Assembly (NCBI GenBank): GCA_030668485.1
Contig: DAOUTW010000007.1
Coordinates: 5,060-69,059 of the forward strand
Direction: 5' to 3'
From: Candidatus Zixiibacteriota bacterium
Lineage (GTDB): Bacteria; Zixibacteria; MSB-5A5; GN15; JAAZOE01
DNA: 64,000 bases
Positions 28,318 through 62,549 of this stretch are shown here, piece by piece. The notes under the pieces were generated by a model. That model was not told the origin of the DNA, ran no database searches, and was given only the letters and a program-made list of their open reading frames with translations. The position numbers were made by a program, and so were the translations under genes. Each line of letters opens with the position of its first letter. The stretch's first letter is position 1.

Positions 28318-30486
28318 ATGTATTTCAAGACCAGTTTAACGGTACCAGTACTCATCGCTCTGCATTTATGTTCGGTAGCGGTTCTGGCCCAGGCCCCTCA
28401 ATTCGTGTCCACCTCGCCGGAACAGAATGAATTGAATGTTTCGGCATCTTCCAATATCTCGGTTACTTTCGATATCGACATGGATGAAACGACGATCACA
28501 GGTTTGTCTTTTGTCGTCCACGCGGCGTATACCGGCTGGCATGAGGGCGCTATCAGCTACGACGCCGGTACCCGTACAGCGACACTCGATCCGAACAACA
28601 ATTTCCTTGACGGGGAGGTCATCACAGTAATACTCACAGATGATATTGCCTCATCCGGAGGGGCAACGCTTGAGGGTAGCCATATCTGGTCATTTACTAT
28701 CCTTATCAGTGGAGAAACCCCAGGTTTTATCCAATATAATTCTTCCTATGATGTTGATAGTGTAGCTCTTTCGGTTTACTCCGCTGATTTTGATAATGAT
28801 GGCGACCGTGATCTTGCCGTGGCTAATTCCGGCGCAAACAACATCTCGGTGTTAATGAACAATGGTGACGGGACCTTTGGTACTCAGACCAGCTATACCG
28901 TTGGTTCCCTACCCACGTCGGTATGCGCAGCCGATCTTAACAGAGATGGCGCCCTTGACCTAGTTTCAGCCAATGGTTTTTCTCATACGATTTCAGTATT
29001 GCTAAACAATGGGGACGGTTCCTTCACTCGTGATTCGGACTATGATATCGGCCACTTTCCGATTTCTGTCACAGCCGCAGATCTGGACGGCGACGGAGAC
29101 CTTGATCTGGCAACAGCCAACAACGTGACCAGCACAATGTCAGTCTTATTAAATGATGGAGAAGGATCTTTCGTTTGGCATCAGGAAATTCCGGTGGGCG
29201 TTAATCCCGGCTCGATCTCCCCGGGTGATTTTGACGGCGATGGAGACATTGACCTGGTTACGGCCAATTTGGGAAGCGACGATATATCCGTTTTGATGAA
29301 TTTTGGAAATGCTACATTTGCGTCCGAGGTGAGGTATCCAGTGGGTGATCGTACCCGGTGCCTTGTTACGGCCGACATCGACAATGACGGGGATATCGAT
29401 GCGATAGCGGCAAATTCTAATTCAAACGATGTATCGATTCTGCTGAATGACGGTAACGGGGTTTTTGTCACCGGCAATACATATAATATAGGTTCACGTC
29501 CACGATCTGTTTGTGCATCCGATCTGGATGGTGATGGCAGGCTCGATTTGATCGTTGCAAATCGGTATTCTCATAATTTGTCGATTATCAGAAATCTCGG
29601 TGGTGGGACTTTCGCAAACCACATGGATATTTACCTTGCAGGAGAACCCGCTTCAGCGTTCGCGGCAGATTTCGATAATGATGGCGACCTTGATCTGGTT
29701 GCATCATATTCCAATAGGGATAAGGTAGACATATTAATGAATCTTACCTGCGCAGATTCTGATGGCGACGGTTATGGAGATCCCGGTCATCCCGAAAACG
29801 AATGCCCCGATGACAATTGTCCATTGATAGCCAATACAGAGCAGACGGATACTGATAATGATGGTATTGGTGATGCGTGTGATGAGTGTACCGATACTGA
29901 TAGCGACGGGTACGGCAATCCCGGGTTTAATGCCAATACCTGCCAGATCGATAATTGTCCTGATATACCCAATCCGGATCAAACTGACAGTGATGGCGAT
30001 GAGCATGGTGACCTGTGCGACAACTGTCCTTTTGTCGACAATCCGACTCAGGAAGACATCGACAGAGATGGCGTTGGAGATGCATGCGATAAATGTACCG
30101 ATACTGATGGCGACGGATATGGAGACCCCGGCTACCCAACCGATACGTGTGAACTGGATAACTGCCCCGATGACTTTAATCCCGATCAGGCCGATTCGAA
30201 TGGGAATGATATGGGGGATGCCTGTGATCCCGTATGTGAATGCCGTCCCGGTGACTCCAACAGTGACGGTGGTGTTAATATCGGTGATGGGGTGTATATA
30301 ATTGGCTATGTATTCAAGGGGGGCCCAGCGCCAGAGCCATACGGGAACTGCAGCGGCGACGCCAATGGCGATTGCGAGACTAATATTGGAGATTGCGTTT
30401 ATGTCATCGCCTATGTATTTAGAGGCGGCCCGCCACCTAAATCATGTCATGAATGGATAGACGCATGCGGGTGGCCACTCCGTTAA
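28318..30486 (+). CDS. secreted FG-GAP repeat / thrombospondin-type-3 repeat protein with C-terminal dockerin-like module
   Basis: Signal peptide. More than 7 FG-GAP/VCBS-like repeats (DFDNDGDxDL..AN). TSP3 Ca-binding repeats (DSDGDGYGD..DNCP). The C-terminal double DxNxDGxxN loop lies at about 30235-30483. Confidence 0.8.
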   Translation: MYFKTSLTVPVLIALHLCSVAVLAQAPQFVSTSPEQNELNVSASSNISVTFDIDMDETTITGLSFVVHAAYTGWHEGAISYDAGTRTATLDPNNNFLDGEVITVILTDDIASSGGATLEGSHIWSFTILISGETPGFIQYNSSYDVDSVALSVYSADFDNDGDRDLAVANSGANNISVLMNNGDGTFGTQTSYTVGSLPTSVCAADLNRDGALDLVSANGFSHTISVLLNNGDGSFTRDSDYDIGHFPISVTAADLDGDGDLDLATANNVTSTMSVLLNDGEGSFVWHQEIPVGVNPGSISPGDFDGDGDIDLVTANLGSDDISVLMNFGNATFASEVRYPVGDRTRCLVTADIDNDGDIDAIAANSNSNDVSILLNDGNGVFVTGNTYNIGSRPRSVCASDLDGDGRLDLIVANRYSHNLSIIRNLGGGTFANHMDIYLAGEPASAFAADFDNDGDLDLVASYSNRDKVDILMNLTCADSDGDGYGDPGHPENECPDDNCPLIANTEQTDTDNDGIGDACDECTDTDSDGYGNPGFNANTCQIDNCPDIPNPDQTDSDGDEHGDLCDNCPFVDNPTQEDIDRDGVGDACDKCTDTDGDGYGDPGYPTDTCELDNCPDDFNPDQADSNGNDMGDACDPVCECRPGDSNSDGGVNIGDGVYIIGYVFKGGPAPEPYGNCSGDANGDCETNIGDCVYVIAYVFRGGPPPKSCHEWIDACGWPLR

Positions 30487-35202: not shown

Positions 35203-36246
35203 ATGTTGAATAAAAAAACCATATTTACCGGGCTGGTTCTTCTAATCTTGCTATCCCTGACTGGATTGGCCCTGGGTAAGGACAAACCGAGACGGACGAT
35301 CAAGGTCAAGCTGGTTGCCGACCAGCACTATGCTCGTTATGAACAATGGCAGCGCAAAGCGGCCCGGATGCTTCTGGATATCGCTGAGGAAGTGACCCGG
35401 AACTTGCAGATCGATTTTCAAATAGTAGGTTATGAAGAATGGAAACATGACCCGGAAGAAAACCTGTATAATCTGACTTCGGAGATGATCCGCGAGGTGG
35501 ATATCGATAGCGCCGATGCCTTGATCGGTTTCACTTATGGAACGTGCCCAGATGAAAACGTTCGGGCGCATACCGACGGTGTAACAATTCCATACCGGGG
35601 TATGATTATTAAGACTTATCCTGCCCGTTGCCGGCGCAATCTATATATTCCTTATGTGATGATTCATGAAATGGTTCATCTTATGGGGGGAGTACATGTC
35701 CGGGAACGCTCCCTGATGACGCCGGTCTTTACCGACACGGTTAGCCTGACCATCGACCGCCTAAATCAGAACATTCTGCGTCATACCCGGGATATCGATT
35801 TTCGGCAGGGTTATCGATCACTTTCGCGTGGATCGCTACGGAAGCTGGCGCAGAATTATCAATTGGCAATAAGTCAGGGCAATAATGAGTTACTGACACA
35901 CCATGAGCTGGGAAAAATGTTTATGGCGATGGGTAATTATGCCGATGCTATTTCAGTGCTGCAATCGATTGTCAACTTCGACTCTACCTATACCGATGCC
36001 TGGATAAATTTGTCCACCTGCTACTCCGAATTGGGAAGATCGGATCGAGCCATAGAGTTACTCAAGGGCGCCGTCGCTACGGCCGACCAGCGCGGTTTGA
36101 TTCATCATCGCTTGATGGAATTATATTTAACGATCGGCGATTCGGTCAATGCCCGTCAGGAAGCGACAAGATCCCAAAAACAGGGGATAGTCGTCGATTC
36201 GGTTCTTCTTAAAAGGCTTCAATTGCCAGGGGAAGATGATAATTAG
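35203..36246 (+). CDS. secreted metzincin-like zinc peptidase with C-terminal TPR repeats
   Basis: Signal peptide. Exact HExxHxxGxxH ([11 protein letters not shown]). TPR repeats at the C-terminus. Confidence 0.6.
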
Positions 36247-38045
36247 GTGCGCTCAAGCTTGAGGGCGGCCAGGAAGGCCTCCTGCGGAATTTCCACCGTA
36301 CCGATCTGCTTCATCCGTTTCTTGCCCTCTTTTTGTCTCTCCAGCAGCTTCCTTTTGCGCGTGATATCGCCGCCATAACATTTGGCGGTAACATTTTTGC
36401 GCAAGGCACGGACCACCGAACGGGAAATAATTTTATTGCCGATCGTTGCCTGGATAACAACCTCGAACATCTGCCGGGGAATAAGCGTTTGCAGTTTCTC
36501 GCACAGGGCTCGGCCGTAATAGAAGGCCTTGTCCTTGTGGAGGATCACCGACAGGGCATCGACCGGATCGGAATTAACCAGAATGTCGAGTTTGACCAGT
36601 TTGGCTGGAACATAATGAGGTATTGAGTAATCAAAAGAAGCATATCCCCGCGTGACCGATTTGAGCTTGTCATGAAAATCGAAAATCACTTCCGCCAAAG
36701 GAAAGGAAAATGACAGGTTGGCGCGGGTGGTGCTTAGATATTCGGTGTTTTTGTACTGTCCTCGACGGTCGCCGGCCAGTTTCATGATATTGCCGATATA
36801 TTCGGGAGGGGTGATGATCTGGCTGTCGACCACTGGTTCCTCAACCCGTTCGATATCACCCGGGGCCGGAAGCTGTGACGGCGAATCAACCCGTTTCTTT
36901 TCGCCGCTTTCGGAGTAGACGTGATATTCGACATTAGGGACGGTGTTGATGATGTATTGATTATATTCGCGAGCCAATCGTTCGGTGATGATTTCCATAT
37001 GAAGCAGGCCGAGAAAGCCACATCGGAAACCAAATCCAAGCGCTACGGAAGTCTCGGGGACAAAATCAAGTGAAGCATCGTTTAGCTTCAGTTTTTCCAG
37101 GGCGTCGCGCAACTGGGTATAATCCTCGGCCACCGCCGGGTAAATTCCGGCAAAAACCATCGGTTTGATTTCCACAAATCCCGGGAGCGGTTTGTCGGCC
37201 GGGCGAACGGCATCGGTAATAGTGTCGCCGACCTTGGCGTCACCGACATGTTTGATCGCGGCAAAGATATATCCGACCTGCCCGGTTTCCAGTATAGCGG
37301 TCGGAAAATATTTTAACCTCCGAAAGCCAACCTCGTCTACTTCGAATTCTTTGCCGTGCGATCTGAATTTTATGGTCATCCCTTTGCGGATGGAACCATC
37401 GACCACTCTGATATATGCAGCGGTGCCTTTATAGGGATCATAGGTCGAATCGAATATCATAGCTCGCAGAGGGGCGTCCACAGCGCCGCGGGGCGGCGGG
37501 ATCTGCCTGACAATCGTTTCCAGAAGATCATGGATACCGATTCCCTGCTTGGCCGAGCAGAATATAATTTCCTCTCTTTTGCATCCCAAAAGATCGATGA
37601 TTTCTTTGGCAACCTCGTCGGTGCGGGCAACCGGTAAATCTATTTTGTTGATCACAGGAATGATCTGAAGATCGTTCTCGATGGCAAGGTACAAATTGGA
37701 AACGGTCTGAGCCTCGATTCCCTGTGAAGCGTCGACAACCAATAGAGCCCCCTCGCAGGCCGACAGCGACCGGGAAACCTCGTAGGTGAAATCGACATGG
37801 CCGGGAGTATCGATCAGATTAAGATTATAAACTTCTCCATCGTCGGCCCGATAGTCGAAACGGATAGCGTGAGATTTGATGGTAATTCCGCGCTCACGTT
37901 CAAGGTCCATATCGTCCAGAGTCTGGTTTTTCATCTGGCGCTCATGCAGCGCCCGGGTCGATTCCAGCAGACGGTCGGCCAGGGTTGATTTACCGTGGTC
38001 GATATGGGCGATTATGCAAAAATTTCTGATCTGTTTCTGGCTCAT
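36243..38045 (-). CDS. lepA: translation elongation factor 4 (LepA)
   Basis: [20 protein letters not shown]-motifs. LepA C-terminal domain. 600 aa. Confidence 0.95.
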
Positions 38046-38233: not shown

Positions 38234-41200
38234 TTACTTAAAAATCGGCTGTCCGCAAGCGCCTTCCCAGGTATCGCAATCAACCGGGGGAGGTCCGCCC
38301 TTAAAGACATAACTGATAGTGTATACAGCGTCACCGACGTTACAAGAACAGTCACCATTGCCGTCACCGCTGCAGGTTGCATACGGAGTCGGGGCCGGGC
38401 CGCCCTTGAAGACGTAACTGATTGTGTACACCGCATCACCAACGTTGACACTACCGTCGCCGTTGGCATCTCCGGGAACGCAATCGCAGACGAAGTCAAC
38501 GAAGATTTCCTGAGCAAGAGCCCAGGCGCGGGCCTGGTCTACCTGGTCGAGGTAGTCTTCTTCGCCTTCGTTGGTAGTTATCAGACCGATAACATACGTG
38601 TATTCCGCCTTGGCAGTCATATCGACGGCCTCGAAGGTCATACCGGAATGCAGGTCGATGGTGTCAAGTGCAGCCGGATTGTAACCACTGAGAGTGGTCA
38701 TCTGCGTATACAGGTATTCCTTATCGTAACCCGATCCGAGCTGATACTCGGCGTTCTCTTCTGTCCAGGCATTCAACGGGGTGCCCGTTTCGGTACCCTT
38801 GAAGAGAGCCACGCCGCCAAGACGATCGTTCTCATTGATCGGTGCGCCACCACAGGCGTCATAGTTATCCTCTTCGCCGGGGATGGTATCATATTCAGCA
38901 CCATACTGCCAGATCGTATTCCGAAGTGTATCCGCATCAAAACCGGTACCGTTATCGACGGCTTCATCGGCTGGGATATCCCAGTCGAGGACAAAGCCAA
39001 GATAGACTTCACTGGCGTCCTTGACCGGATTCCAGTTAAAGAAGGTGTATTTACCGACGACGAAGCAGTTGATTCCGTCAATCGGGGCATACATACTAAT
39101 GGCCACACCGTAAAGTGAATCGGAAGTCGTGACGGTGCACTGGAGCATTTCATAATCTCCAGGTACGGTAGTCCGGATCAGACCACTCTGGGGCCGGAAG
39201 GTACCAACTTCCGTGAAGTCCTGAGTAAACACGGTCGTATAGGCCAGATTCTCATCGCCGTTATTCCAGGTGATCATCGGGGAGGCGTCGTAGAGATACA
39301 TCAACTCATTCGGAGGAGTGTCGACCGAGTCGCAATCATCCGGAATATCGAGTGAGGCACCATCAGTGTCACCACCGAGACGAGCGGTATTATAAACCGC
39401 CAACTGCTTGCAGGTGGTATTGAGAATACTATCTTCAGGCATATTGAAATCAGAGGCCACGGTCAAGGCAATTTCAACAACATCGGGGCTCGAAGGAGCG
39501 TCATGAGTGATTGTGATAGTCGCATCATAGCTGGTACCCTCGGTGGTGAGTACACCGCCGGCGTTGAGGGTTATGTCGACTACGTCGAAGCTGCTGGTGT
39601 TGATAGCAGCCATGTGGCCGCCCATGGATATCCATGACGGATCGGCTCCGGCGCTATCGGATACGGCTATGCTGGCAATATTGAGAATCTCGTTACCGAT
39701 ATTGCTGATTTTAAGCGATACAACCAGAGGCACGCCAGGAGGCGTATGAGTCGGATCGATAAACTGAGTTGGCTCTAGCGAGAGTTTCGGGATGTGAGCC
39801 ACATCGCGGCACGGGAAACGATAGTGCATCACATTATTGACACACCAGGTACCGCTGCCCTGCGGAATACCGCCGGCATCCTTATCGTTGATATACATAA
39901 TATCGAGCGTATCATCGACAGTCTCATCACCGTAAACCATACCATACCTGCCCATCGACGACCAGTGATCGCTCTCACAGTAAGAGCTGTCGCAATTCGA
40001 CGTTCTGGTTTTGGTCAGGTTCCAGGCAGTATCCCAGGTTACGCCCATATCGTCGGAAGCGCCCAGGTACAATTCACCGTTTGCGAAGCCGGCCTGAGAA
40101 CAGTCTGCCAGAGCGCCCGGCTCATTGTCATCACCAAATTTGGTGTATAGAGCGTATAAATTGCCGTCGCAATACGACACCGATGGCTTGGCAATGTAAA
40201 GATTCCAGGCATCAGGGTCGCAGGGACGCGTCGGTGTCAACTGCATAACATAACGAGCTTCATCGATAATACTGCCCGTTGAAACGGTCTCAGACGTCAA
40301 CTCGACAGCCCAGTGAACCAGACGCGATTTGTAGTTTTCATAAGAACTCTGGCTGCGAAGCTCGCGAACCGGAGCTATGATATGAATGGAGTTGTCCTGG
40401 GTCGTGAATACTGCCGACAAGTCGGAATAAGCGCGCCACAGGGAGTCGTCTTCCTCCGAGTAATTGGACACGCATACCGGCAAATTCCAGTTGTCACCCT
40501 GATCGGTGGACAAAATGTAGTATACGTCGAGGTCAGTCTGGCTGCCCGATCCCTCTTCTTCACCAGGGCGATCGTCGGTATAGACAATGGCAACCTTGTC
40601 CGAATTGGCATCCGGGACTACAGTGTAGGCCAAGTCAGTCACCGTTTCGATGTACTGACCCTGATCCCAGTCTGCGGTACCCATTTTGCGGTAGAGGATC
40701 ATATCTTCGCTGCCCTCAAAGACGTGCGTAATCATGTAAATTACGTCTTCGGTCACACTCGGATGATCGGAATTATGTGTGGAGATAATCGGCCAGATAG
40801 TTTCCGGCTGATACCAATCGGCTTCCGCATCCGGGGAACAGGCATAGTTGTAAAAAATGAATGCAGGTACAGACGGATAACCGTCCCAGTAATAGGTTGC
40901 TTGATAAATACCGGTACCGGGATCGACATGGCAGCCAAAGGCCGCTTCACCATCTGCGCTCCAGGCACACGAAGTGTAGCCACAATAATCCGGATCGGTG
41001 GCAGCATAACCGCCTTCATCAAGCACATAGGTGGGTTCAGCCGCCCACGAATCATATGCCTGAACATAAACGCCGCGAGCGCCCGGTATTGTGAAATCGT
41101 CCTGTGCCATCCATACGATGAACACAAAACCATTATCCTTATTGGTCGCAACCTGACGACCCATCGATCCATTATGCTGGTAATCGTAAGTGGTCAATCC

Positions 41201-41437
41201 TGCCACATTACCTGGAGAGTTGGTTGGGGGGCCAGCCTTCAGGTTTAGTGGAATGTTACCTTTGGTTTGTACTGACATCCCATTCGTCTTTTCATACGGA
41301 ATCATGAACCTTGGTGCACGATCCGGATGGAAAGTAGTTTTCGGATGCAGATTATCAGCCGCATACACTAATGAAGCTGACAGGAACATACCAAAGAGGA
41401 ACGCGGTCATGAGTACAACGGAAAGCTTATTGCGCAT
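38234..41437 (-). CDS. large secreted protein (1067 aa) with C-terminal dockerin-like module
   Basis: Signal peptide. Unassigned approx. 950-aa beta-rich body. The C-terminal GDANGDGSVNVGDAVYTISYVFKGGP x2 with 4 Cys lies at about 38237-38470. Confidence 0.75.
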   Translation of the reverse strand: MRNKLSVVLMTAFLFGMFLSASLVYAADNLHPKTTFHPDRAPRFMIPYEKTNGMSVQTKGNIPLNLKAGPPTNSPGNVAGLTTYDYQHNGSMGRQVATNKDNGFVFIVWMAQDDFTIPGARGVYVQAYDSWAAEPTYVLDEGGYAATDPDYCGYTSCAWSADGEAAFGCHVDPGTGIYQATYYWDGYPSVPAFIFYNYACSPDAEADWYQPETIWPIISTHNSDHPSVTEDVIYMITHVFEGSEDMILYRKMGTADWDQGQYIETVTDLAYTVVPDANSDKVAIVYTDDRPGEEEGSGSQTDLDVYYILSTDQGDNWNLPVCVSNYSEEDDSLWRAYSDLSAVFTTQDNSIHIIAPVRELRSQSSYENYKSRLVHWAVELTSETVSTGSIIDEARYVMQLTPTRPCDPDAWNLYIAKPSVSYCDGNLYALYTKFGDDNEPGALADCSQAGFANGELYLGASDDMGVTWDTAWNLTKTRTSNCDSSYCESDHWSSMGRYGMVYGDETVDDTLDIMYINDKDAGGIPQGSGTWCVNNVMHYRFPCRDVAHIPKLSLEPTQFIDPTHTPPGVPLVVSLKISNIGNEILNIASIAVSDSAGADPSWISMGGHMAAINTSSFDVVDITLNAGGVLTTEGTSYDATITITHDAPSSPDVVEIALTVASDFNMPEDSILNTTCKQLAVYNTARLGGDTDGASLDIPDDCDSVDTPPNELMYLYDASPMITWNNGDENLAYTTVFTQDFTEVGTFRPQSGLIRTTVPGDYEMLQCTVTTSDSLYGVAISMYAPIDGINCFVVGKYTFFNWNPVKDASEVYLGFVLDWDIPADEAVDNGTGFDADTLRNTIWQYGAEYDTIPGEEDNYDACGGAPINENDRLGGVALFKGTETGTPLNAWTEENAEYQLGSGYDKEYLYTQMTTLSGYNPAALDTIDLHSGMTFEAVDMTAKAEYTYVIGLITTNEGEEDYLDQVDQARAWALAQEIFVDFVCDCVPGDANGDGSVNVGDAVYTISYVFKGGPAPTPYATCSGDGNGDCSCNVGDAVYTISYVFKGGPPPVDCDTWEGACGQPIFK

Positions 41438-51034: not shown

Positions 51035-52306
51035 TCAGGTTTTACGTTCTTTTTTACGTGCGGCCGGGAACAGGATATTGTTCAGGATTAGACGATATCC
51101 CGGTGAATTTTTGTGAAGAGACAGCTCGGTCGGCGGATCGTTGATCATATGCTGATAATCTTCCGGGTCATGCCCGGAATAAAAAGTAAAGGTTCCTTTG
51201 CCGACATTGCCGTGGATATAGCGAACCTCATCGTACTCCAGCGGTTCGGCCAGGACGATGACATATTTTTTGAGAAGCGATTTGCGCAAGGCGGTACACT
51301 GGCCCATGAAACCGCTGATCATCGGAGTATGACATTGAACCAGCATACTCGGCACCGGGTCGAGTTTGGCCGAAAACTCGAAAAGGTAAAAGACATCCTC
51401 ATCGGGCATCATAAACCGCTCCGAGCGGTCCGGGTAAGTATCGATATTGGAGCGGCGATAAACCAGCGGTTCGAGGCTGACCGCAAAGTCGGTAAAGGCC
51501 ATTGTCTGAGTGTAATCGAGTTTCTCCAGGCATCCCGGGTCGGGCGGGTCGCCGTCGAATTCCGACGGGACAATATCGGTCGAATGCGCTGCCAGGGCGA
51601 TATCAACCGTTTCCGCCGCCGAGCACATGGCAAACACAAATCCGCCGCGGACGACATACTCTTTTATCTCGCGAGCGACGGCCTTTTTACATTCGGAAAC
51701 CTTGTTATAACCGAGCGACCGTGCCATCGCCTCATTGGTGGCGACATCCTGCTGATACCACAGTTGATTGTGAAAACTGGCGTAAAACTTGCCATACTGG
51801 CCGGTGAAATCCTCGTGATGCAGATGCAGCCAGTCGTATTCCTCCAATTTGCCGGTCAATACCTCGGCGTCCCAGAGGACATCATAATCGATTTCGGCGT
51901 ATTCAAGCGCCAGCCGGACGGCATCGTCCCAGGGCTGATGCGACGGCGGCGCATAGACAGCTATGGCGGGCGCTTTTTCGAGAAAAACCCGTTCCATGTT
52001 TTCGGCTTCGACGGTTCGGTAGATATCGGACGCGGCGGCGTTGCTGATTGCCTGATAAGTGACCCCTCGCATCAGGCACAGATCGCGGTTCCGATCGGTG
52101 TCCTTGATCAAGAAGGCGCCGTCCATGAAATTGAGCAGCCATTCGGCTTCCTGGTCGCGGGTCAGGCAGTTAAAGACGACTCCATATGCCTTGAGGTGGT
52201 CGGCCTGGTTTTCATCCATCGGAATCAGGATCATCCCGGCCCGGACAGTCAGAGGCAGAGCGACAAGGATTAGAGAGATGGTCGCGATGATCAGCAGTTT
52301 TTTCAT
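51035..52306 (-). CDS. hypothetical secreted protein (possible GATase1-like fold)
   Basis: Signal peptide (MKKLLIIATISLILVALPLTVRA). GGFVFAMCSAAE nucleophile-elbow-like motif. The assignment is weak. Confidence 0.5.
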   Translation of the reverse strand: MKKLLIIATISLILVALPLTVRAGMILIPMDENQADHLKAYGVVFNCLTRDQEAEWLLNFMDGAFLIKDTDRNRDLCLMRGVTYQAISNAAASDIYRTVEAENMERVFLEKAPAIAVYAPPSHQPWDDAVRLALEYAEIDYDVLWDAEVLTGKLEEYDWLHLHHEDFTGQYGKFYASFHNQLWYQQDVATNEAMARSLGYNKVSECKKAVAREIKEYVVRGGFVFAMCSAAETVDIALAAHSTDIVPSEFDGDPPDPGCLEKLDYTQTMAFTDFAVSLEPLVYRRSNIDTYPDRSERFMMPDEDVFYLFEFSAKLDPVPSMLVQCHTPMISGFMGQCTALRKSLLKKYVIVLAEPLEYDEVRYIHGNVGKGTFTFYSGHDPEDYQHMINDPPTELSLHKNSPGYRLILNNILFPAARKKERKT

Positions 52307-52607
52307 ATATATATCAGTCCCGGTCATTTTTCAGTCTACCTCATTAAACATCATCGCCCGCCGATCGGTTCGGCATTTTTTTGCAGTTGCCTGGCTCGCA
52401 GGTGGTAATGTAACCGAAAAAAGTCAAATGTAAACGACAAATATTTAAGAAGGGTACTGTAGCAGGCAGTGGTATTCGATTATGTCCTGTCTGCCAATGC
52501 TTTTTACTTGTCACTCTTAATCTGATCCGTCCGGATATAGCAGACTTGGGCGACGGCGACTTTGACTCCGTTATTTCTTGGCGAATAAGAAAACCGCCTT
52601 TTGACAG

Positions 52608-52680
<73 letters not shown>

Positions 52681-52689
52681 CTAATGGCG

Positions 52690-52764
52690 CATTTTATTTT
52701 GGTGAGGGTGGAAGGGATCGAACCTTCGACCACCTGCTTAAAAGGCAGATGCTCTACCCCTGAG
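52690..52764 (-). tRNA. tRNA-Lys (anticodon TTT)
   Basis: Manual cloverleaf: acceptor GGGGGTG/CACCCTC, anticodon loop CTTTTAA, T-loop TTCGATC, encoded CCA. Confidence 0.8.
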
Positions 52765-52869
52765 CTACACCCCCACACTTATTTTGGGTCAGAAATATAG
52801 GCTTTTGCGATAAAATGTCAACATTTTTTATCCGGACTCAGAGGGCTCAGGGCGGACAAAATAAACTGC

Positions 52870-53007: not shown

Positions 53008-53811
53008 ATGAAACTCATTATCATTTCCTTGCTTGCTGCAATTTGTATGATGTCATCGACTTACGCTCTTGACAATATTGTCGACATTAAAATGATTCGC
53101 ACTGCCGATATGGCCGAGGTCGATACCGTCTATATCGGTTCACGGCACCATTTTCAGATTTTGATAGAGAATGCCTGGATAATGGGCGGCATGTCTTTGG
53201 CTTTTCAGGTATATTCCGAAGACGGAGTGACCTGGAACTGGGACAGTCAGCCAAGCGGATTGCCCGAAGACGGCCTGAAGGCAGTAACCATTGTCCCGGG
53301 ATCGCGGATGGATAACACTCCCTGGGATATGACGGGGCATGATGTTACCGAAACCAATATGGACGGCGTAGGGTCGGATTCATTGATAATGGGCGGCGTG
53401 GCCCTGATGATCGGGTTGGTCCCGGGACCGCTTGAACCATCCTATGAAATGCATTTTACTCCCATTGATATGTCGTCGGAAGATATAGATATGATCTGTA
53501 TCGATTCGGCTTTTATCCCGCCGCATGGTGTTTTCAGTTTTGCCGATAATACTGGTATGTTAATCACAATTCAATTCGACGGGCCGTACTGCTGGCCGGT
53601 TAAACGATTTGTTATCGGTGATTTCGATATGGACGGTGCTATTACCGTTGGCGACGCAGTGGAGATAATTCAATTTATTTTCCTTGGCAAGCCGAACAAA
53701 GGCCCGATCGAGGCTGGAGATGTTAACTGCGACGGCTTAACCGATGTGGCCGACGCGGTTTATTTGATCAACTATATCTTCAGATTCGGACCGCCATTGG
53801 GATGTCTGTAA
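53008..53811 (+). CDS. secreted paralog P1: novel approx. 170-aa domain plus C-terminal dockerin-like module
   Basis: GAGGAGGAG RBS. Signal peptide. Conserved blocks WNWDSQPSGL, ICIDSAF, DGPYCWPV. C-terminal module GDFDMDG..GDVNCDG..FRFGPPLGCL. Confidence 0.75.
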   Translation: MKLIIISLLAAICMMSSTYALDNIVDIKMIRTADMAEVDTVYIGSRHHFQILIENAWIMGGMSLAFQVYSEDGVTWNWDSQPSGLPEDGLKAVTIVPGSRMDNTPWDMTGHDVTETNMDGVGSDSLIMGGVALMIGLVPGPLEPSYEMHFTPIDMSSEDIDMICIDSAFIPPHGVFSFADNTGMLITIQFDGPYCWPVKRFVIGDFDMDGAITVGDAVEIIQFIFLGKPNKGPIEAGDVNCDGLTDVADAVYLINYIFRFGPPLGCL

Positions 53812-53829
53812 ACGAGGGAGGGTTACAAA

Positions 53830-54648
53830 GTGAAATTTTACATTCTATTATTTGCCGGGATTTTGGTTCTGGGTATTTTTTCCACATTGGCGGCGTACGA
53901 AAATAGAGTTGCCGTACAGGCAATTCGTACCCTGGATGATACTCCCGTTGATACGCTTTACATTGATTCAAAACATCAAATACAGGTGCTCCTTGAGAAC
54001 GATGGTACTATGAGGCATATAAACCTGCCCTTTCAGATATACGCCGACGATAATTTAACCTGGACCTGGGATGCACAACCTGATGGTTTTCCGCTGGATG
54101 AGCATCAGGCGATTACAATGATTCCGCATAGTCGGCTGGAACATGCTTATGAGTATTCAGGTCAACCTGGTCAACCTCAAGTGTTTTTTTTCGAGTTGGA
54201 TATGGATGGTCAAGGAGCGGATACATTGGTAATATTGGGAATGGGTTACAACTTTTGGCTTAATTCGGGTCGTTTGATGCCTATGCTGGCTTTTCATTTA
54301 ACGCCGCGCGGGGATCAGATTAATGAAACGTATACACTATGCATTGACTCGTGTACGTCATTGGCTTCCCTACTATTTGAGGATCTTTACTATAGACCTG
54401 TACATCCCGAATTTGATAGGCCCATCTGCTGGCCGGTAAAACGCTTTGTGGTCGGTGACTTCGATATGGACGGCGAAATCACCGTTGGCGATCCGGTTGA
54501 GATAGTTCAGTTCATCTTCCTCGGCAAGCCCAACAAAGGTCCGATCGAGGCTGGTGATGTTAACTGCGACGGCTTAACCGATGTGGCCGACGCGGTTTAT
54601 TTGATTAATTTTATATTCAGATTCGGCCCGGCATTGGGGTGTCTGTAG
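53830..54648 (+). CDS. secreted paralog P2 (GTG start)
   Basis: GAGGGAGG RBS. Same architecture as P1 (TWTWDAQPDGF, CIDSC, RPICWPV, dockerin-like C-terminus ...GCL). Confidence 0.7.
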   Translation: MKFYILLFAGILVLGIFSTLAAYENRVAVQAIRTLDDTPVDTLYIDSKHQIQVLLENDGTMRHINLPFQIYADDNLTWTWDAQPDGFPLDEHQAITMIPHSRLEHAYEYSGQPGQPQVFFFELDMDGQGADTLVILGMGYNFWLNSGRLMPMLAFHLTPRGDQINETYTLCIDSCTSLASLLFEDLYYRPVHPEFDRPICWPVKRFVVGDFDMDGEITVGDPVEIVQFIFLGKPNKGPIEAGDVNCDGLTDVADAVYLINFIFRFGPALGCL

Positions 54649-54673
54649 GGAAAAAATAGAAAAGAGGTATACA

Positions 54674-55489
54674 ATGAAAGTCTCGATCATTTCTATTATG
54701 GCAGTTCTGCTTTGCCTGACATCAATTACCTATGCTCAGTTCAATAACAGCGTCAGCATCCAACTGATCCGCTCCGGTGATAATGCCGTAGTAGATACAG
54801 CATTTTCCGGCTATGATCACCAGTTTCGGTTTACGATTGAAAACGATTTCAGGGTTGGAGGTATGAGTCTCGGTTTCCTTATTTATTCGGACGACGGCGT
54901 TACCTGGACCTGGGATGCTCAACCGGATGGGTTTGGGGCTACGACACAGGCGGTGACTGTCATCCCGGGATGTCGTATGTATCCGCCTGAGAATGTCTTT
55001 GATATGACGAGTCTTCTGGCCACCGAGGTCGATGTAGACGGAGCAAGCCCCGATTCACTGATGTTTGGCGGAGTGGCCATGATGGCAGGATTAGAGCCCG
55101 GGCCGCCGGAACCGATGGTTAATTATCATCTAACACCTTACATTGTTGACGATTTGCCCGGCACTATATGTATCGATTCAACATTTATCCCCCCGACTGG
55201 CGCTTTTATCTTCATGGCTCCTTCAGACCCCGTCTTAGCTCCCAACTTTGACGGCCCGTTCTGTTGGCCGGTCAAGGAATTCGAACCGATATTGGGCGAT
55301 TTCGATCTGGACGGGCAGATCACCGTGGGTGATGTGGTCGAGATGATCCAGCATATTTTTAACGGTAAACCGCATTTTGCCCCGATCGAAACCGGTGATG
55401 TTAATTGCGATGGCCAGATGAATGTCGGCGACGTGATTTATATGATCGCCTATATCTTCAGATTCGGCCCGGCCCCGGGGTGTCCTTAG
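54674..55489 (+). CDS. secreted paralog P3
   Basis: Same architecture as P1, ending ...FRFGPAPGCP. Confidence 0.75.
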   Translation: MKVSIISIMAVLLCLTSITYAQFNNSVSIQLIRSGDNAVVDTAFSGYDHQFRFTIENDFRVGGMSLGFLIYSDDGVTWTWDAQPDGFGATTQAVTVIPGCRMYPPENVFDMTSLLATEVDVDGASPDSLMFGGVAMMAGLEPGPPEPMVNYHLTPYIVDDLPGTICIDSTFIPPTGAFIFMAPSDPVLAPNFDGPFCWPVKEFEPILGDFDLDGQITVGDVVEMIQHIFNGKPHFAPIETGDVNCDGQMNVGDVIYMIAYIFRFGPAPGCP

Positions 55490-55568
55490 GCAAGAGGGAA
55501 ATTTGACATGGCCATAATATGTAAATTATAGGTACTCATAGATCCAAAAACTATCAGGAGGGTAACTC

Positions 55569-56378
55569 ATGGGACTGAAAACACTGTATGGACTGCTTTC
55601 AATGCTGATACTGACATCTATGGTTTTTGCTGAGGAGGATGTCGTCAGCATCAAATTGATTCGAAGCGCAGACAATGCAGTCGTCGAAACCGCCTATTCA
55701 GGTTATGCGCATGAGTTTCAAATATCGATTGAAACAATCGGGTGGATCTATGAAAACATGCACCTCGGCTTCAAAATTTCATCTATCGATGGCATAACCT
55801 GGACGTGGGATGCTCAGCCATCCGGTTTGGGTAACCATATGGCTGTGACCGAAACCCCGGGCAGCAGAATGAATGATTGCTGGTCCATGACCGGATTATT
55901 GGTCAGTGAAACGAATATGGACGGCGTTTTGAATGACTCCATTGGCATTGGCGGCGTAGCATTTTTGGGAGCAGGACTGCCTCCGGGTCCGATGGAACCT
56001 ATTTGCGAATTTCATTTCACGCCGCAAATATCCGTCGAGGATGGCACGGGAACAATTTGTATCGATTCGGCCTTTCTCCCGCCGGCTGGCGCATGGTTGC
56101 TGGCCGTATCGTCGGACCCTTATAGTATTCCCAGAATCGACGGCCCGTTTTGCTGGCCGGTGGTTGAATTCGAACCGCTTCTCGGCGATTTCGATCTGGA
56201 CGGGCAGATCACCGTGGGTGATGCGGTCGAGATGATTCAACATATATTTCTGGACAAGCCACATTTTGCGCCGGTTGAAACCGGTGATGTTAATTGCGAT
56301 GGCCAGATGAATGTCGGTGACGCGATCTATATGATCGCCTATATTTTCAGATTCGGCCCCCCGCCGGGATGCCCGTAA
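55569..56378 (+). CDS. secreted paralog P4
   Basis: AGGAGGG RBS. Same architecture as P1, ending ...FRFGPPPGCP. Confidence 0.75.
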   Translation: MGLKTLYGLLSMLILTSMVFAEEDVVSIKLIRSADNAVVETAYSGYAHEFQISIETIGWIYENMHLGFKISSIDGITWTWDAQPSGLGNHMAVTETPGSRMNDCWSMTGLLVSETNMDGVLNDSIGIGGVAFLGAGLPPGPMEPICEFHFTPQISVEDGTGTICIDSAFLPPAGAWLLAVSSDPYSIPRIDGPFCWPVVEFEPLLGDFDLDGQITVGDAVEMIQHIFLDKPHFAPVETGDVNCDGQMNVGDAIYMIAYIFRFGPPPGCP

Positions 56379-56402
56379 TTTGAAAAGCATGAGGAAATGA
56401 TT

Positions 56403-57218
56403 ATGCATACTATGATCAAGATTTCGATACTGATTGGGGCCTGTCTGCTGGCGGCCAATGCGGCGGCCTTGGAAGATCGGGTATCCCTTCAGGCAGTTCG
56501 TTCCATGGACGGAGCTCAGGTTGATACCCTCTACTTTGGGCATGAACACCAATTTCAGGTTATGATCGAAAACAGCTTCGTTCTATTTCAATTCTCCCTC
56601 GGGTTTGCCATATACTCGGATAGTAATACCTCTTTGGAATGGAATGCTCAACCGGATGGGTATCCCGAAGACGGGCAACGAGCAATAACCGTGATTCCGG
56701 ACAGCCGCTTGGATTCCGTCAATATTGACGTCGGCCAGGTACGGATAGGCTTTATAGATGGTAGTCTTGATGAGCAATTGCCGGATTCGATGGCGGTGAT
56801 CCCCTGGTATGGCTTTGATTTACCAATAGGACCGATGGAACCGATGATGGCTTTTCATTTTACGCCGATACAAAACTTCCCTGATGAGGTCGGTGAGCTT
56901 TGCCTGGACTGGACATGGGCCGGGAGTGAATTTGTGTTCTTCTTCTATGATCAATGGATGTATTATACTCCCGAATTTGACAGGCCCTTCTGCTGGCCGG
57001 TCAAGGAATTCGAACCCATGTTGGGTGATTTCAATTATGACTGGCAGATTTCCGTTGGCGATATTGTTGCGATGATCCAGCATATTTTTGGTGGGGTGCC
57101 GCATGTCGCACCAGTTGGATCCGGCGATGTCAATTGCGACGGCCAAATGAATGTGGGTGACGCGATCTATCTGATTGCCCATATTTTCAGATTCGGTCCC
57201 GCGCCGGGATGCCCGTAG
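56403..57218 (+). CDS. secreted paralog P5 (most divergent)
   Basis: Same architecture, but the first Ca-loop is degenerate (GDFNYDWQ). Ends ...FRFGPAPGCP. Confidence 0.7.
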   Translation: MHTMIKISILIGACLLAANAAALEDRVSLQAVRSMDGAQVDTLYFGHEHQFQVMIENSFVLFQFSLGFAIYSDSNTSLEWNAQPDGYPEDGQRAITVIPDSRLDSVNIDVGQVRIGFIDGSLDEQLPDSMAVIPWYGFDLPIGPMEPMMAFHFTPIQNFPDEVGELCLDWTWAGSEFVFFFYDQWMYYTPEFDRPFCWPVKEFEPMLGDFNYDWQISVGDIVAMIQHIFGGVPHVAPVGSGDVNCDGQMNVGDAIYLIAHIFRFGPAPGCP

Positions 57219-58395: not shown

Positions 58396-58605
58396 ATGCC
58401 ATTGTATGAATATAAATGTGGCCAATGCGGCCACAAATTCGAAAAACTGGTGACGGCGTCGGAGACGGTTCCGGAATGCCCTGCCTGCGGATCGAATGAA
58501 TGTGAAAAGCTGTTTTCCGCATTCTCATCGAATATCGGTCAGGGATCGCTATCGTCGACCGCCGGTAATTGCGAAGGTTGCAGCGGCGGCGGCGGTTTCA
58601 CATGA
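58396..58605 (+). CDS. FmdB-family zinc-ribbon regulatory protein
   Basis: MPLYEYKCGQCGHKFE ... CPACGS, the CxxC_CxxC_SSSS family start. Confidence 0.85.
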   Translation: MPLYEYKCGQCGHKFEKLVTASETVPECPACGSNECEKLFSAFSSNIGQGSLSSTAGNCEGCSGGGGFT

Positions 58606-58647
58606 GGATAAGCCAATGAATCCGCCGTGGGCGGAGGAGTAATAACG

Positions 58648-59181
58648 ATGAAAAAATCTGTTTTTTTAATAGTCGGCCTGTTTCTGGTCAGTATTTTTCT
58701 GATAAACGGTTTCAAGGGTGAGTTCGGCGGCGGGGGAGATGAATGGCAGGAGGGAATCAATTGGACGATGGCCTCGATTACAAAAGACGAAATTGTGGCC
58801 GCCGACAAACCGGTTTATCTGTTCGTCACCACCGACTGGTGTACCTTCTGCAAGAAAATGAAGGCCAATACATTCACCGATCCAAAAGTTCAAAAGCTTC
58901 TTAATGAGCTTTTTGTCGCCATCCCGCTCAATCCTGAAAAAACGGGAACAGCTAATTTTACCGGTGAGGCGCTGCCGTACTCCGATCTGGCCAAGAAGCT
59001 TCGCGTCAACGGATATCCCGCTTCGTTTTTCTTTGCTCCCGACGGCCAACTGATAGGCAGTCAGCCTGGTTATGTTGACGCCAAATCGTTTGCCGATATG
59101 GCCGAGTATGTCGGCGACGGCCATTACAAAAACTATTCTTTCGCCAAATTCCAGGCCTTACCTGCCGATCAGCGGCGGTAG
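58648..59181 (+). CDS. secreted thioredoxin-fold protein (thioredoxin_7/DUF255-like)
   Basis: Signal/TM segment, WCTFC CxxC motif, thioredoxin fold. Confidence 0.7.
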   Translation: MKKSVFLIVGLFLVSIFLINGFKGEFGGGGDEWQEGINWTMASITKDEIVAADKPVYLFVTTDWCTFCKKMKANTFTDPKVQKLLNELFVAIPLNPEKTGTANFTGEALPYSDLAKKLRVNGYPASFFFAPDGQLIGSQPGYVDAKSFADMAEYVGDGHYKNYSFAKFQALPADQRR

Positions 59182-59297: not shown

Positions 59298-62114
59298 TTA
59301 ATTTGAATCGACACAACCGCATGTCGGCGCCGGACCGCCTTTGAAGATGTAGCTGATCATGAAAACGGCGTCGCCGACATTGAAGGAACAATCGGAATTA
59401 ACATCTCCCTCATTGATGCATGGCGGCTCAGGTCCGCCCACGAATATGTAATTAATGGAAAAGACGGCGTCACCGATATTCATCTCGCCATCATCATTGG
59501 CATCACCCGGCAAATGGCAGCAACCCGCACCGGGAGAATCACCGAAGGCGTAATTGGTGTGAGCGGCAGCGATCAACAGATCGGTCGGATACTCAATACT
59601 GTTGAGCAAATCCTTTTTTCCACCCATTGGTACGGGATCGTCATCGCGGCTCGTACTCACATCGAATGCACTGACCGCCCAGTAAATTCCATCACATCCC
59701 TCGACCTGCCCTTCGACAATACTTAGGTCCAACTCGTCGGTAGTCTGACCGCTTTCCCATTCGCCATCGGCGAAACCATTGGGGTTTATCAGGGTGTAAG
59801 TGGCGAGGTTGACAGCGGTATAGATGGTGTCGTAATTCAAACCACCTACGGCAGGCAGCAGATCGGGCACCGACCAGGTGATATCGGGCGGCCCGTCGTT
59901 GATGTTGTAGGCGTATACATCACTGACTCCATTGGGGTGAATAATCGTCTGCCGCCATCCATCGGCGTCAGGAGTCTGGAAGAACATAAACTCCATGGGT
60001 TGATTGTCGAATTCGGGATGCACCTCCCGGAAGTCAAGTTCACCGGTATGCGATTCACCGAATTCCTCATCACTGCCTACAATTCGGTAAATATAATACC
60101 AGTCGGCATCCATCTGTTCACCGTTTTGATACCAGTTGAAGGTGAGCGCCTGAGACTGATTTATCACATCATAGACCATCATAAGATCTTCATCAACAGT
60201 TGCATTGGCCCCCGGGGCGAGCGCCACACAGCGTCCGGCTCCCGGCCCCACCCGGGGCGAAAACATGATATCATGTGGGCTATCGGCTGCGTTGAAAATG
60301 GTTGTCAGGTTTAGTGCAGAATCATGGTCGACCATTATCGTAGTGGTGAGGTAATAGTCACATGTCTCAACCCAGAAATTAAGCGCCATAGTATATCCGC
60401 CGCAATTGGAGTCATAGGCACAAGTTCCGAATTCCTCAAGCACGAGATATCCGTCGATAATATCCAAGTAGGCCGTGTACTCGCCCGGACATTCGTTTTC
60501 GTCGGCGGTTGTTGAGAATTTTTTCTCTCCTTCCTGCGGCGAAACATACACACTCCCACCGGATTCGACTTCGACAACGGTACCGGCGGGAAGAACCTGC
60601 CCCACTGTCAAAGGCTCTCCATTCGCCGTCGCTGTACCATTTACTTCCTTTACTACAACGGCTTCATCGACGTGATACTTGCCATCTTGGAGAGTGTACT
60701 TGTTTATACAGACCGCACATGTGTCACCGGCGATCCCGTCCTCTCCTTCATCACCGTCTTTACGAGTTCCTTCATCACCGTCTTCACCATAGAGCCCATT
60801 ACTTCCGTCAGCACCGCCAACACCGGGATCTCCGAAGTCGCCGAAGGGGCCAACATATCCGGTGCCGACAGTTCCTTTAGATCCACGACCTCCGCCGGGA
60901 GCACCGTCACCACCGTTACCACCATTACCGGCATTGCCGCCGTATCCGTCGCCTCCATTACCGCTATTCCCGCCGTTACCGCCATCGCCGGTTCCAAAAC
61001 CATTTCCTCCGGTTCCACCTTTGCCGCCGGTACCACCTTTGCCATCTCCTCCGTGACCACCTACATTGCCCCCTCCACCTGGACCATAGGGATCGCAACA
61101 CTTCCCGCCATCGCCACCATCGCCGGCATCACCCCCATGTCCATCGCCACCCTTTCCACCCTTGCCGCCGTTGGCGCCATTGCCATCGGCCGGTCCGGGA
61201 GCGTTATCACCGGGTCCACCCGGTCCTCCCTTACCGCCAATCCCGTCAATGCCTTCACTGCCTGGATATCCATGGTCACAGTCGCCACCATCATCGCCAT
61301 CAACGCCAATAACGCCAAAATCGTTGTCCCCGTCCGTCCCAGGCTCGCCGTCAGTAGTCGACTTGAGGACGATGTCGCCCCCATTTCCTCCGTTTCCCCC
61401 ATCTCCCGGATTGTTTGCAGCGCTGCCTTTACCTCCGGCGCCGCCATGGCCTGCATAAACCTTAGCATCATCTGATGAGGCCAGAATAGATCCGCCCAAA
61501 TATATATTGCCGCCGTTTCCCCCGTCACCGCCCGGTTCGCCCGTTTCTAATGTGGCTGAATTAGCCGGGGCATCATATCCCCGTCCGCCGTCACCGGCAT
61601 AGATGCTATGATTAATTATAATTTTGGGGGCGGAGATGACAAGATTGCCGCCATTCCCGGAGGCGATCCGAACGATCTCATCACCGCTCTGATTGGTTAG
61701 TAATGGCGCTGATATCTGTGCGCCATTTCCAGCTCTGACTTCCCCCCTAATTGTTATCTGTCGCTTGCTTTTCAGAGTTATCGAAGGACCTGTTACCGTT
61801 TCGGTGACCTGCACCCGTGCTGACCCCAGGATTGAGCCGTCGATGACGATTTCATCCTCACATGTGATACTGAGATCGTCAGAAACTCTAATTACCGCCG
61901 TGCCGTCAATGTTAAGGGATTTGAAATGAAATTCACCCTTGATCGGGGCGATGTTTTCCGAATCCCAAACGACATCTCCGAGATATTCCTCCCCCTGGCA
62001 AACGGATGAGTTTGAAATCGCTACACCGAGGCTGAGAGTGATTGTCATGAAAATGAAAATTACCGCGGTTGCGCATTTCTCGAAACTCCTATGTGGATAC
62101 ATTCGACCATTCAT
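59298..62114 (-). CDS. giant secreted Gly/Asp/Asn-rich low-complexity protein with C-terminal dockerin-like module
   Basis: Start at MNGRMYPH, preceded by GGAGGAG. Signal peptide. About 300 aa of GG(D/N/K)GG repeats. The C-terminal double Ca-loop module (GDANDDGEMNIGDAVF.., GDVNSDCSFNVGDAVF..) lies at about 59301-59560. Confidence 0.7.
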   Translation of the reverse strand: MNGRMYPHRSFEKCATAVIFIFMTITLSLGVAISNSSVCQGEEYLGDVVWDSENIAPIKGEFHFKSLNIDGTAVIRVSDDLSITCEDEIVIDGSILGSARVQVTETVTGPSITLKSKRQITIRGEVRAGNGAQISAPLLTNQSGDEIVRIASGNGGNLVISAPKIIINHSIYAGDGGRGYDAPANSATLETGEPGGDGGNGGNIYLGGSILASSDDAKVYAGHGGAGGKGSAANNPGDGGNGGNGGDIVLKSTTDGEPGTDGDNDFGVIGVDGDDGGDCDHGYPGSEGIDGIGGKGGPGGPGDNAPGPADGNGANGGKGGKGGDGHGGDAGDGGDGGKCCDPYGPGGGGNVGGHGGDGKGGTGGKGGTGGNGFGTGDGGNGGNSGNGGDGYGGNAGNGGNGGDGAPGGGRGSKGTVGTGYVGPFGDFGDPGVGGADGSNGLYGEDGDEGTRKDGDEGEDGIAGDTCAVCINKYTLQDGKYHVDEAVVVKEVNGTATANGEPLTVGQVLPAGTVVEVESGGSVYVSPQEGEKKFSTTADENECPGEYTAYLDIIDGYLVLEEFGTCAYDSNCGGYTMALNFWVETCDYYLTTTIMVDHDSALNLTTIFNAADSPHDIMFSPRVGPGAGRCVALAPGANATVDEDLMMVYDVINQSQALTFNWYQNGEQMDADWYYIYRIVGSDEEFGESHTGELDFREVHPEFDNQPMEFMFFQTPDADGWRQTIIHPNGVSDVYAYNINDGPPDITWSVPDLLPAVGGLNYDTIYTAVNLATYTLINPNGFADGEWESGQTTDELDLSIVEGQVEGCDGIYWAVSAFDVSTSRDDDPVPMGGKKDLLNSIEYPTDLLIAAAHTNYAFGDSPGAGCCHLPGDANDDGEMNIGDAVFSINYIFVGGPEPPCINEGDVNSDCSFNVGDAVFMISYIFKGGPAPTCGCVDSN

Positions 62115-62549
62115 AGCTCCTCCTTCCAAATTGTTGCGGCGATTGTCTGCAGAACTGATCCGATATAAGATGCTTTTCAATTACAGTGATGTCGCCAATT
62201 TTGCAAAAATTACCCCTGAGCCAACGACTTAAACAAACTGAATACAATCGCCGAAGATGCGATACTTTTGAGAAATATCAATTTTTATATGCGATGTGGG
62301 ATGCCAGGTGATGCTCTCGTTGCTCAATGATACTACATGCGGCGAACTCTGTCAAGTCGATAGTGTCGGTCGAACCAGCGCCGTGACGGAATGCGAAAGG
62401 TCCGGTTTGCCCTTGACAGATTAAGAAGCAGATGATATATAGTAATTACAGGTCAGGCATCTTATAATTTGCAAATCGGCATCGTATCCAGTGGAAGCGA
62501 ATACCTGCTCTTTGCATGGCAACAAACCGTAAGGAGGTCGGTCGTGCCT

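Follow-up and report, generated by a model that had tools for sequence, protein, structure and literature searches.

The stretch of DNA analysed here, referred to as the window, comprises 64,000 nucleotides from a Candidatus Zixiibacteriota bacterium, and carries at positions 53008-57218 a tandem array of five intact, co-oriented genes on the plus strand. Their open reading frames (ORFs), taken from the ORF listing and designated P1 to P5, encode proteins of 267-273 aa. Each paralog consists of a signal peptide, a module (the N-domain) that has the cohesin fold according to the AlphaFold2 model and the Foldseek ranking described below, and a C-terminal dockerin. The five genes and their parts are as follows.

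P1, 53008..53811, plus strand: 267 aa, ATG start, identified by the ORF listing and by N-domain and dockerin profile matches; signal peptide MKLIIISLLAAICMMSSTYA, followed by LDN after the cleavage site; cohesin-like N-domain 53071-53610; dockerin 53614-53805 (Dockerin_1, E 1.2e-7)
P2, 53830..54648, plus strand: 272 aa, GTG start; signal peptide; N-domain 53899-54447; dockerin 54451-54642
P3, 54674..55489, plus strand: 271 aa; signal peptide; N-domain 54743-55288; dockerin 55292-55486; the protein used for modelling
P4, 55569..56378, plus strand: 269 aa; signal peptide; N-domain 55635-56177; dockerin 56181-56375
P5, 56397..57218, plus strand: 273 aa; signal peptide; N-domain 56472-57017, the most diverged of the five; dockerin 57021-57215

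An initial annotation of this DNA had described five co-oriented genes lying 18-79 bp apart, each with its own ribosome-binding site (RBS), and this is borne out by the ORFs and by inspection of the start codons. Neighbouring genes are separated by 18, 25, 79, and 18 bp, and a purine-rich RBS (GGGAGG, AGAGG, AGGAGG, or GAGG) is located 5' of every start codon. Since AGGAGG lies directly 5' of the ATG at 53008, this codon was chosen as the start of P1 rather than the TTG at 52963, at which the mechanical ORF opens. The proposed order of signal peptide, N-domain, and dockerin tail is found in all five proteins, although the N-domain is about 180 aa long and not 170 aa. The N-termini read as typical Sec signal peptides with a K-rich n-region, a hydrophobic core, and an A-x-A-type cleavage site. 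Lipoprotein anchoring was rejected on the same reading, since the Cys of the signal peptide is not preceded by a lipobox. A scan for sigma-70 promoters and terminators gave no interpretable operon signals within the array.

The C-termini of P1-P5 all pass Pfam Dockerin_1 (PF00404) with E-values of 1e-7 to 5e-5 and scores of 23.7-32.2 bits, the gathering cut-off being 22.9 bits, and no other Pfam domain was found in the five proteins at E<=1. The family profile also matches solved dockerins at E 1e-6. Each module contains two duplicated F-hand Ca2+ loops, DFDLDGQITVGD and DVNCDGQMNVGD, with D/N at loop positions 1, 3, and 5 and D at position 12, and in the full-length P3 model each loop is followed by a helix (197-209 and 230-243); the C-terminal modules have the dockerin fold. 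The first Ca loop of P5 (57021-57056) reads DFNYDW, with Trp at loop position 6 in place of the usual Gly, and that of family member P0006 reads DFDLDW with Trp at the same position; judging from these residues, the first Ca-binding site may be degenerate in both. The dockerins of P1 and P2, and likewise those of P3 and P4, are 91% identical at the amino-acid level, with about 0.41 of synonymous sites differing (pS) and 0.04-0.06 of nonsynonymous sites (pN). The pN/pS ratio is about 0.1 in these two least-diverged pairs, and the P1-P5 dockerin is under strong purifying selection.

The N-domain profile matches exactly five places in the window, which are those of P1-P5, with E-values of 1e-67 to 1e-87, and the five-gene pattern is therefore not a product of chance. 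Pairwise identity between the N-domains is 34-56%, so that the strong divergence noted initially is correct and the range of about 40-55% given for it is too narrow; the closest paralog of P2 is P5 (42% identity). Blocks described as invariant can be recognised in the alignment, but only as a consensus from which P2 and P5 deviate. For example, the TWTWDAQP.G block is TWNWDSQPSG in P1 and SLEWNAQPDG in P5, the IPGSRM block occurs also as IPHSRL, IPGCRM, and IPDSRL, and the ICIDS block is LCLDW in P5. Alignment of the five paralogs does confirm that the four Cys positions are invariant. Across 173 domain instances, numbered according to P3 with NNSVS as residue 1, the most conserved positions are D104 (99%), G120 (98%), D145 (98%), and N34 (96%), followed by C143 (91%), R78 (88%), and C174 (88%). 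Four of these residues make up a near-invariant polar set (88-99% of the instances): N34, R78, D104, and D145, encoded at about 54842, 54974, 55052, and 55175 of the window.

The AlphaFold2 model of the P3 N-domain, built from a 21-sequence alignment, has a mean predicted local distance difference test (pLDDT) of 93.9 and a predicted template modelling score (pTM) of 0.90. It displays the cohesin beta-sandwich fold and can be superimposed on solved cohesins over nearly the whole cohesin length. When the model was submitted to Foldseek, cohesins ranked first (E 1.7e-5), and two methods agree in giving them the strongest and fullest structural matches, ahead of carbohydrate-binding modules (CBMs) and adhesins. 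The N-domain had been considered novel. This holds for its sequence, which no sequence library recognises (NCBIfam also gave no match for the N-domain), but not for its fold: at that level there is a confident match to a characterised family, the outcome that had been named beforehand as refuting novelty. The likeness may reflect homology to cohesins or convergence on the cohesin fold. The N-domain passes into the dockerin at CWPVKEFEP-ILGDFD with a linker of near-zero length, and the single-chain model of full-length P3 has a pTM of 0.84, which suggests that both modules would be held in a fixed cis arrangement with essentially no linker.

The five proteins belong to a large family. An exhaustive profile search with a threshold of E<=1e-3 retrieved 832 clusters, mostly from metagenomes of the Fibrobacterota-Chlorobiota-Bacteroidota (FCB) group, and 129 of them reach E<=1e-30; a word-indexed search had found 21 relatives, falsely suggesting rarity. 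About 60% of the members end in a dockerin. In a Pfam census of 94 short members, Dockerin_1 was found in 57, a sorting domain of the type IX secretion system (T9SS; Por_Secre_tail, FlgD_ig, CHU_C) in 11, and Cohesin in none. Architectures were further examined in 167 members with purpose-built profiles. One N-domain is joined to a terminal dockerin in 101 of them and to a T9SS C-terminal sorting domain (CTD) in 19, two to four tandem N-domains precede a T9SS CTD in at least nine, and several N-domain copies are combined with a dockerin in at least six. Several members have N-domain repeats with an internal dockerin and a CTD, and one (P0118) is a polyprotein of the form Doc-[Ndom-Doc]x3. The CTD takes the place of the dockerin in P0014, P0017, P0018, P0022, P0025, and other homologs; among those with tandem N-domains and a CTD, P0025 and P0076 have two N-domains, P0022 and P0040 three, and P0087 four. 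Such proteins resemble anchoring scaffoldins. Cohesin-like tandem repeats ending in an anchoring module are therefore a property of the family, P1-P5 themselves being monovalent. P0118, a metagenomic protein of 833 aa with linkers of 0-8 aa within its N-domain-dockerin units and of 10 aa between them, can be regarded as the tandem array fused into a single chain. In 140 of the 167 members the N-domain starts no more than 80 residues from the N-terminus, and in long members it is followed by stalk-type repeats (TSP_3, PKD, Big_9, filamin) and then by a C-terminal anchor.

Eight dockerin modules are present in the window, five on P1-P5 and three at the C-termini of other secreted proteins:

28318..30486, plus strand: 722-aa secreted protein with Big_5 and six FG-GAP repeats; dockerin 30250-30447, symmetric class
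38234..41437, minus strand: 1067-aa secreted protein with no Pfam domain; dockerin 38282-38473, symmetric class
59298..62180, minus strand: 960-aa Gly-rich secreted protein with GGxGG-type tracts and no other Pfam domain; dockerin 59319-59507, symmetric class

The dockerins of the 722-aa and 1067-aa proteins were missed by Pfam at E<=1e-3 and were found with the family-derived dockerin profile (E 1e-20 and 2e-19, respectively); unlike those of P1-P5, they are Cys-rich and internally symmetric. Two sequence classes can be distinguished overall: the first segment is asymmetric in P1-P5 (ITVGD.VE.IQ.IF.GKP), whereas the three large proteins are of the symmetric class (YVFKGGP). No glycoside hydrolase or other carbohydrate-active enzyme occurs among the non-paralog dockerin proteins of the window, and there is no Pfam-recognisable cohesin in it. 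A T9SS CTD (Por_Secre_tail, PF18962) was found neither in the window with our own hidden Markov model (HMM) nor in P1-P5 with Pfam. It is possible that the 960-aa protein is a cargo or partner of the array proteins.

The reading of these results that we favour, at roughly even chances, is that P1-P5 are five paralogous monovalent adaptors of a non-cellulosomal assembly system of the cohesin-dockerin type. After export, the dockerin of each protein would plug into a cohesin-type receptor, for which another family member is a candidate, such as the relatives with two to four tandem N-domains and a T9SS sorting domain, which would be located on the outer membrane. The cohesin-like module would offer a further docking site for dockerin-tailed proteins, for example the three proteins of the symmetric class nearby, and the five diverged N-domains could provide five docking specificities or could form head-to-tail chains. 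Since each protein holds both halves of a cohesin-dockerin pair, the earlier idea of self-assembly gains support and becomes more plausible. The results establish how the genes are built, which folds the domains have, the distribution of the family and its architectures, the synteny, and the age of the duplications; that the N-domain binds dockerins, which proteins are the partners, and that the proteins reside on the surface are what we infer. A wider proposal, which we put forward tentatively, is that the N-domain family represents the main cohesin lineage, hitherto unrecognised, of Zixibacteria and neighbouring FCB phyla and serves as the missing receptor for their very abundant orphan C-terminal dockerins in a system of T9SS-anchored scaffoldins and adaptors with non-cellulolytic cargo. 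In this system, the role of scaffoldin on the outer membrane would fall to the T9SS-anchored multi-domain members, and the products of the tandem monovalent genes would be specificity-switching adaptors.

Several known systems offer points of comparison. The cohesin of Ruminococcus flavefaciens ScaC recruits one set of dockerins, while the dockerin of ScaC itself is of another kind and binds to other scaffoldins (PMC5429695). At the level of the fold, P1-P5 resemble ScaC (cohesin PDB code: 5lxv): they are small, secreted, and non-catalytic, with a single cohesin-fold module at the N-terminus and a single dockerin at the C-terminus. The difference in dockerin sequence class between P1-P5 and the three large proteins, the putative cargo, parallels that between adaptor and cargo dockerin types in R. 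flavefaciens (PMC5429695). They depart from ScaC in that their module has no detectable sequence homology to cohesins, about 45 extra residues, and a conserved, predicted disulfide pair, in their near-zero linker, and in being encoded by five tandem paralogs instead of one gene. In addition, the host belongs to the FCB-group Zixibacteria rather than to the Firmicutes, the window shows no cargo of the glycoside hydrolase type, and P1-P5 are putative binders of dockerins. Ruminococcus bromii Amy4, whose cohesin has been shown experimentally to bind its own dockerin (PMC4611034), likewise combines a cohesin-fold module and a dockerin on one polypeptide outside the classical cellulosome, which permits self-association. 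Amy4, however, has a catalytic module, demonstrated dockerin binding, and a cohesin named as such in the literature, none of which holds for P1-P5. The Archaeoglobus fulgidus cohesin (PDB code: 2xdh) matches in fold only and, unlike the P1-P5 module, is a named cohesin in the PDB.

For Candidatus Stygibacter (Cloacimonadota), a T9SS-CTD-anchored cohesin scaffoldin of 3,755 aa has been proposed together with dockerin-tailed non-cellulolytic enzymes (PMC8542988). That system is also from the FCB group, has many C-terminal dockerins, and includes cohesin-type repeats ending in a T9SS sorting domain, as do some members of the N-domain family; its 944-aa Gly-rich 'halomucin-like' dockerin protein (PMC8542988) is similar to the 960-aa protein at 59298-62180. 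Its cohesins, however, were found by InterProScan, whereas the family described here is invisible to current models, and the window has single-module dockerin-tailed genes and no T9SS CTD. Non-cellulosomal dockerin proteins and multi-cohesin proteins have also been discussed in anaerobic methanotrophic (ANME) archaea (PMC9012536). Unlike a cellulosome, the window has no carbohydrate-active enzyme, glycoside hydrolases included, among its dockerin-tailed proteins. Ig-like domains of the pilin, adhesin, and CLIPPER kinds found in surface fibrils (for example, PDB codes 8beg, 3kpt, and 9ifr) are similarly beta-sandwich modules of secreted surface proteins. They align to the N-domain with lower scores and less completely than cohesins and are not associated with dockerins, and features of isopeptide or sortase type are absent from the N-domain. 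The general kind of system is already known, with cohesin-dockerin modules, adaptors, and examples that are non-cellulosomal or come from the FCB group. What is new is a large cohesin-fold family that current profiles do not detect, in which about 45 residues are specific to the family and a predicted disulfide is conserved; the direct fusion of this module to a dockerin, with a tail that is interchangeable with a T9SS CTD; and the five-gene tandem expansion in Zixibacteria. In the literature collection searched, no paper joins dockerin and Zixibacteria, none is of relevance for Latescibacteria and dockerin, and none gave useful information on TTHA1873.

A number of results weigh against an adaptor function of the cohesin type. 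Pfam Cohesin (PF00963) has no match in P1-P5 at E<=1 and none at E<=0.01 in the 103 family members scanned (9 long and 94 short). Profile searches of PDB sequences with the 5-sequence and 94-sequence alignments matched the dockerin part alone, and hhalign of the family profile with a single CipA cohesin (authenticated as 1aoh_A, E 1e-89) gave a probability of 0.1%. Cohesins lack a counterpart for about 45 of the 182 N-domain residues, and some of the most conserved motifs lie there. To judge from the residues themselves, the set of N34, D104, and D145 with R78 resembles a metal (Ca2+) or ligand site rather than a flat protein-docking face, and a canonical cohesin function leaves its conservation unexplained. 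The near-zero linker and the pTM of 0.84 are unlike the flexible linkers of cellulosomes, and on this model the dockerin may serve as a structural element fixed in cis. Finally, it is not evident by which route the dockerin-only proteins would cross the outer membrane, since no T9SS CTD occurs in the window, and the host, as one of the FCB-group Zixibacteria, is presumably diderm.

Some of these observations would suit a different function, which we consider rather unlikely, in which the N-domain is a ligand- or substrate-binding beta-sandwich of the adhesin or CBM kind that has the cohesin fold, and the dockerin or CTD is a mere surface tether. Each of the five paralogs would then have a ligand of its own, for example a polysaccharide, a mineral surface, or another cell. 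The N-terminal position of the module in most members and the stalk repeats and anchor of the long ones correspond to the layout of a tip adhesin, the top conserved residues are polar or acidic and suggest a Ca2+ or ligand site, and sequence similarity to cohesins is absent. Nevertheless, both methods match the N-domain more strongly and more completely to cohesins than to CBMs or adhesins, the three to four tandem N-domains with an anchor in P0022, P0040, and P0087 are scaffoldin-like rather than tip-adhesin-like, and the many dockerins of the genome call for a receptor, while no cohesin recognisable to Pfam occurs in the window. A rigid junction would lend itself to yet another scheme, in which module and dockerin form a two-lobed block that polymerises head to tail into a surface fibre or lattice, with the paralogs as alternative or successive subunits. 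The near-zero linker, the pTM of the full-length model (0.84, as compared with 0.90 for the N-domain alone), the string of three N-domain-dockerin units in P0118, the recurrence of tandem co-oriented family genes on other contigs (L004, L005/L009, L006/L010, and L007), and the documented self-recognition of the Amy4 type (PMC4611034) are all in line with it. However, the N-domain and dockerin trees are discordant, with two dockerin types for five N-domains and no evident one-to-one pairing, relatives have one copy at this locus, and a dockerin packed in cis would need to rearrange to reach another subunit; such a polymer therefore appears improbable.

An assembly artefact, or a series of pseudogenes in decay, is scarcely credible as an account of the array. 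None of the five ORFs is disrupted, and all have an RBS and encode a signal peptide; amino-acid differences between the N-domains amount to 44-66%, the invariant Cys and the fold-core residues are retained, and the low dockerin pN/pS points the same way. Synonymous sites of the N-domains are saturated between paralogs (pS 0.71-0.89); the duplications are therefore old, and a recent tandem amplification was rejected. From the 3' end of P4 through the spacer and P5 to the downstream genes, the sequence recurs at 100% identity in a contig that was assembled independently (Logan, run SRR22839553). This contig begins inside the repeated dockerin sequence of P4, and a break at that place within the array is the one point in favour of an artefact. 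Saturation of pS and the independently assembled P4/P5 junction together led to the rejection of an assembly duplication, which had been raised as a possible refutation of the array.

The two ends of the proteins have had different histories. The N-domains of the pairs with similar dockerins are only 39% (P1/P2) and 56% (P3/P4) identical, and P2 groups with P1 by its dockerin but is nearest to P5 by its N-domain. Either adjacent genes have been homogenised at their 3' ends, or they have swapped domains. The description of the family as diversifying consequently applies to the N-domains, which are old and diverged, and not to the dockerins, which are conserved and more alike between neighbours (91%, pS 0.41).

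Dockerins have been annotated in large numbers in the uncultured FCB group and other candidate phyla, in which the partner cohesins are often missing. If the N-domain family is a cohesin lineage, it would supply this missing partner, indicate how surface assembly could proceed in diderm bacteria by means of T9SS-anchored scaffoldins and small adaptors, and provide new orthogonal cohesin-dockerin pairs for protein engineering. Such a system would amount to cellulosome-style surface display in diderm bacteria, based on a module that no current HMM detects. At a minimum, the family merits its own profile model, which would end annotations such as 'dockerin domain protein' or 'hypothetical'.

The genes around the array are chromosomal housekeeping genes, and LepA (36243-38045) shares 69-82% identity with proteins that carry the names Candidatus Zixiibacteriota, Zixibacteria, GN15, or FCB group, which places the window in a Zixibacteria genome. 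The immediate neighbours of the array are as follows.

52617-52691, minus strand: tRNA-Lys(CTT), divergent from the array
52700-52774, minus strand: tRNA-Lys(TTT), divergent from the array, the pair ending 233 bp upstream of P1
57529-57990, plus strand: OsmC (Pfam), downstream of P5
57994-58383, plus strand: DUF302 (Pfam)
58396-58605, plus strand: Zn-ribbon protein (Pfam)
58627-59181, plus strand: secreted thioredoxin-like protein (Thioredoxin_2/DsbH-type Pfam matches)

The tRNA-Lys pair does adjoin the array, as initially described, but it lies on the minus strand and points away from P1. The comparison of copy number with related genomes that had been suggested was carried out, and a relative represented by two contigs (L002 and L003), in which neighbouring proteins are 60-88% identical, has one family gene at the same position. 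A tRNA-Lys lies directly upstream of this single gene, and the order OsmC, DUF302, Zn-ribbon, thioredoxin is kept downstream (L002 6161-7762). Therefore, the locus is ancestral and the five-gene array is lineage-specific. A mobile island inserted at the tRNA was rejected, since the order of tRNA-Lys, family gene, and OsmC is conserved in relatives. The single-copy protein is 35-45% identical to P1-P5, well below the value for its neighbours, and the family thus evolves faster than the genes around it. It is conceivable that the thiol-disulfide protein oxidises the four conserved Cys, although this is inseparable from plain synteny.

Co-oriented runs of family and dockerin genes recur elsewhere, in L004, L005/L009, L006/L010, and L007, the last of which is a Zixibacteria genome; in L004, two N-domain-CTD genes are followed by an N-domain-dockerin gene on one contig. 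The closest species-representative genomes with the family (L005, L006, and L008) are labelled 'uncultured Ignavibacteriales', while LepA of the window points to Zixibacteria. Either the family spans several FCB lineages, or the labels of these metagenome-assembled genomes are loose.

Beyond the tRNA-Lys pair, the minus strand encodes a 430-aa protein (51035-52327) that has a hydrophobic segment near its N-terminus and is recognised by neither Pfam nor NCBIfam; it is kept in the relative (L002 3-999) at 75-88% identity. At a greater distance, a 423-aa ORF on the plus strand (22839-24110) matches Pfam SduA_C, the C-terminal domain of the Shedu defence nuclease (E 1.7e-7). Since it lies inside the block of lowest GC content in the window (0.408 as compared with about 0.50), it is probably a horizontally acquired defence gene. 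A 626-aa multihaem cytochrome with Cytochrome_C7 and MtrC/MtrF-like domains is encoded on the minus strand at 2120-4000 and hints at a capacity for extracellular electron transfer.

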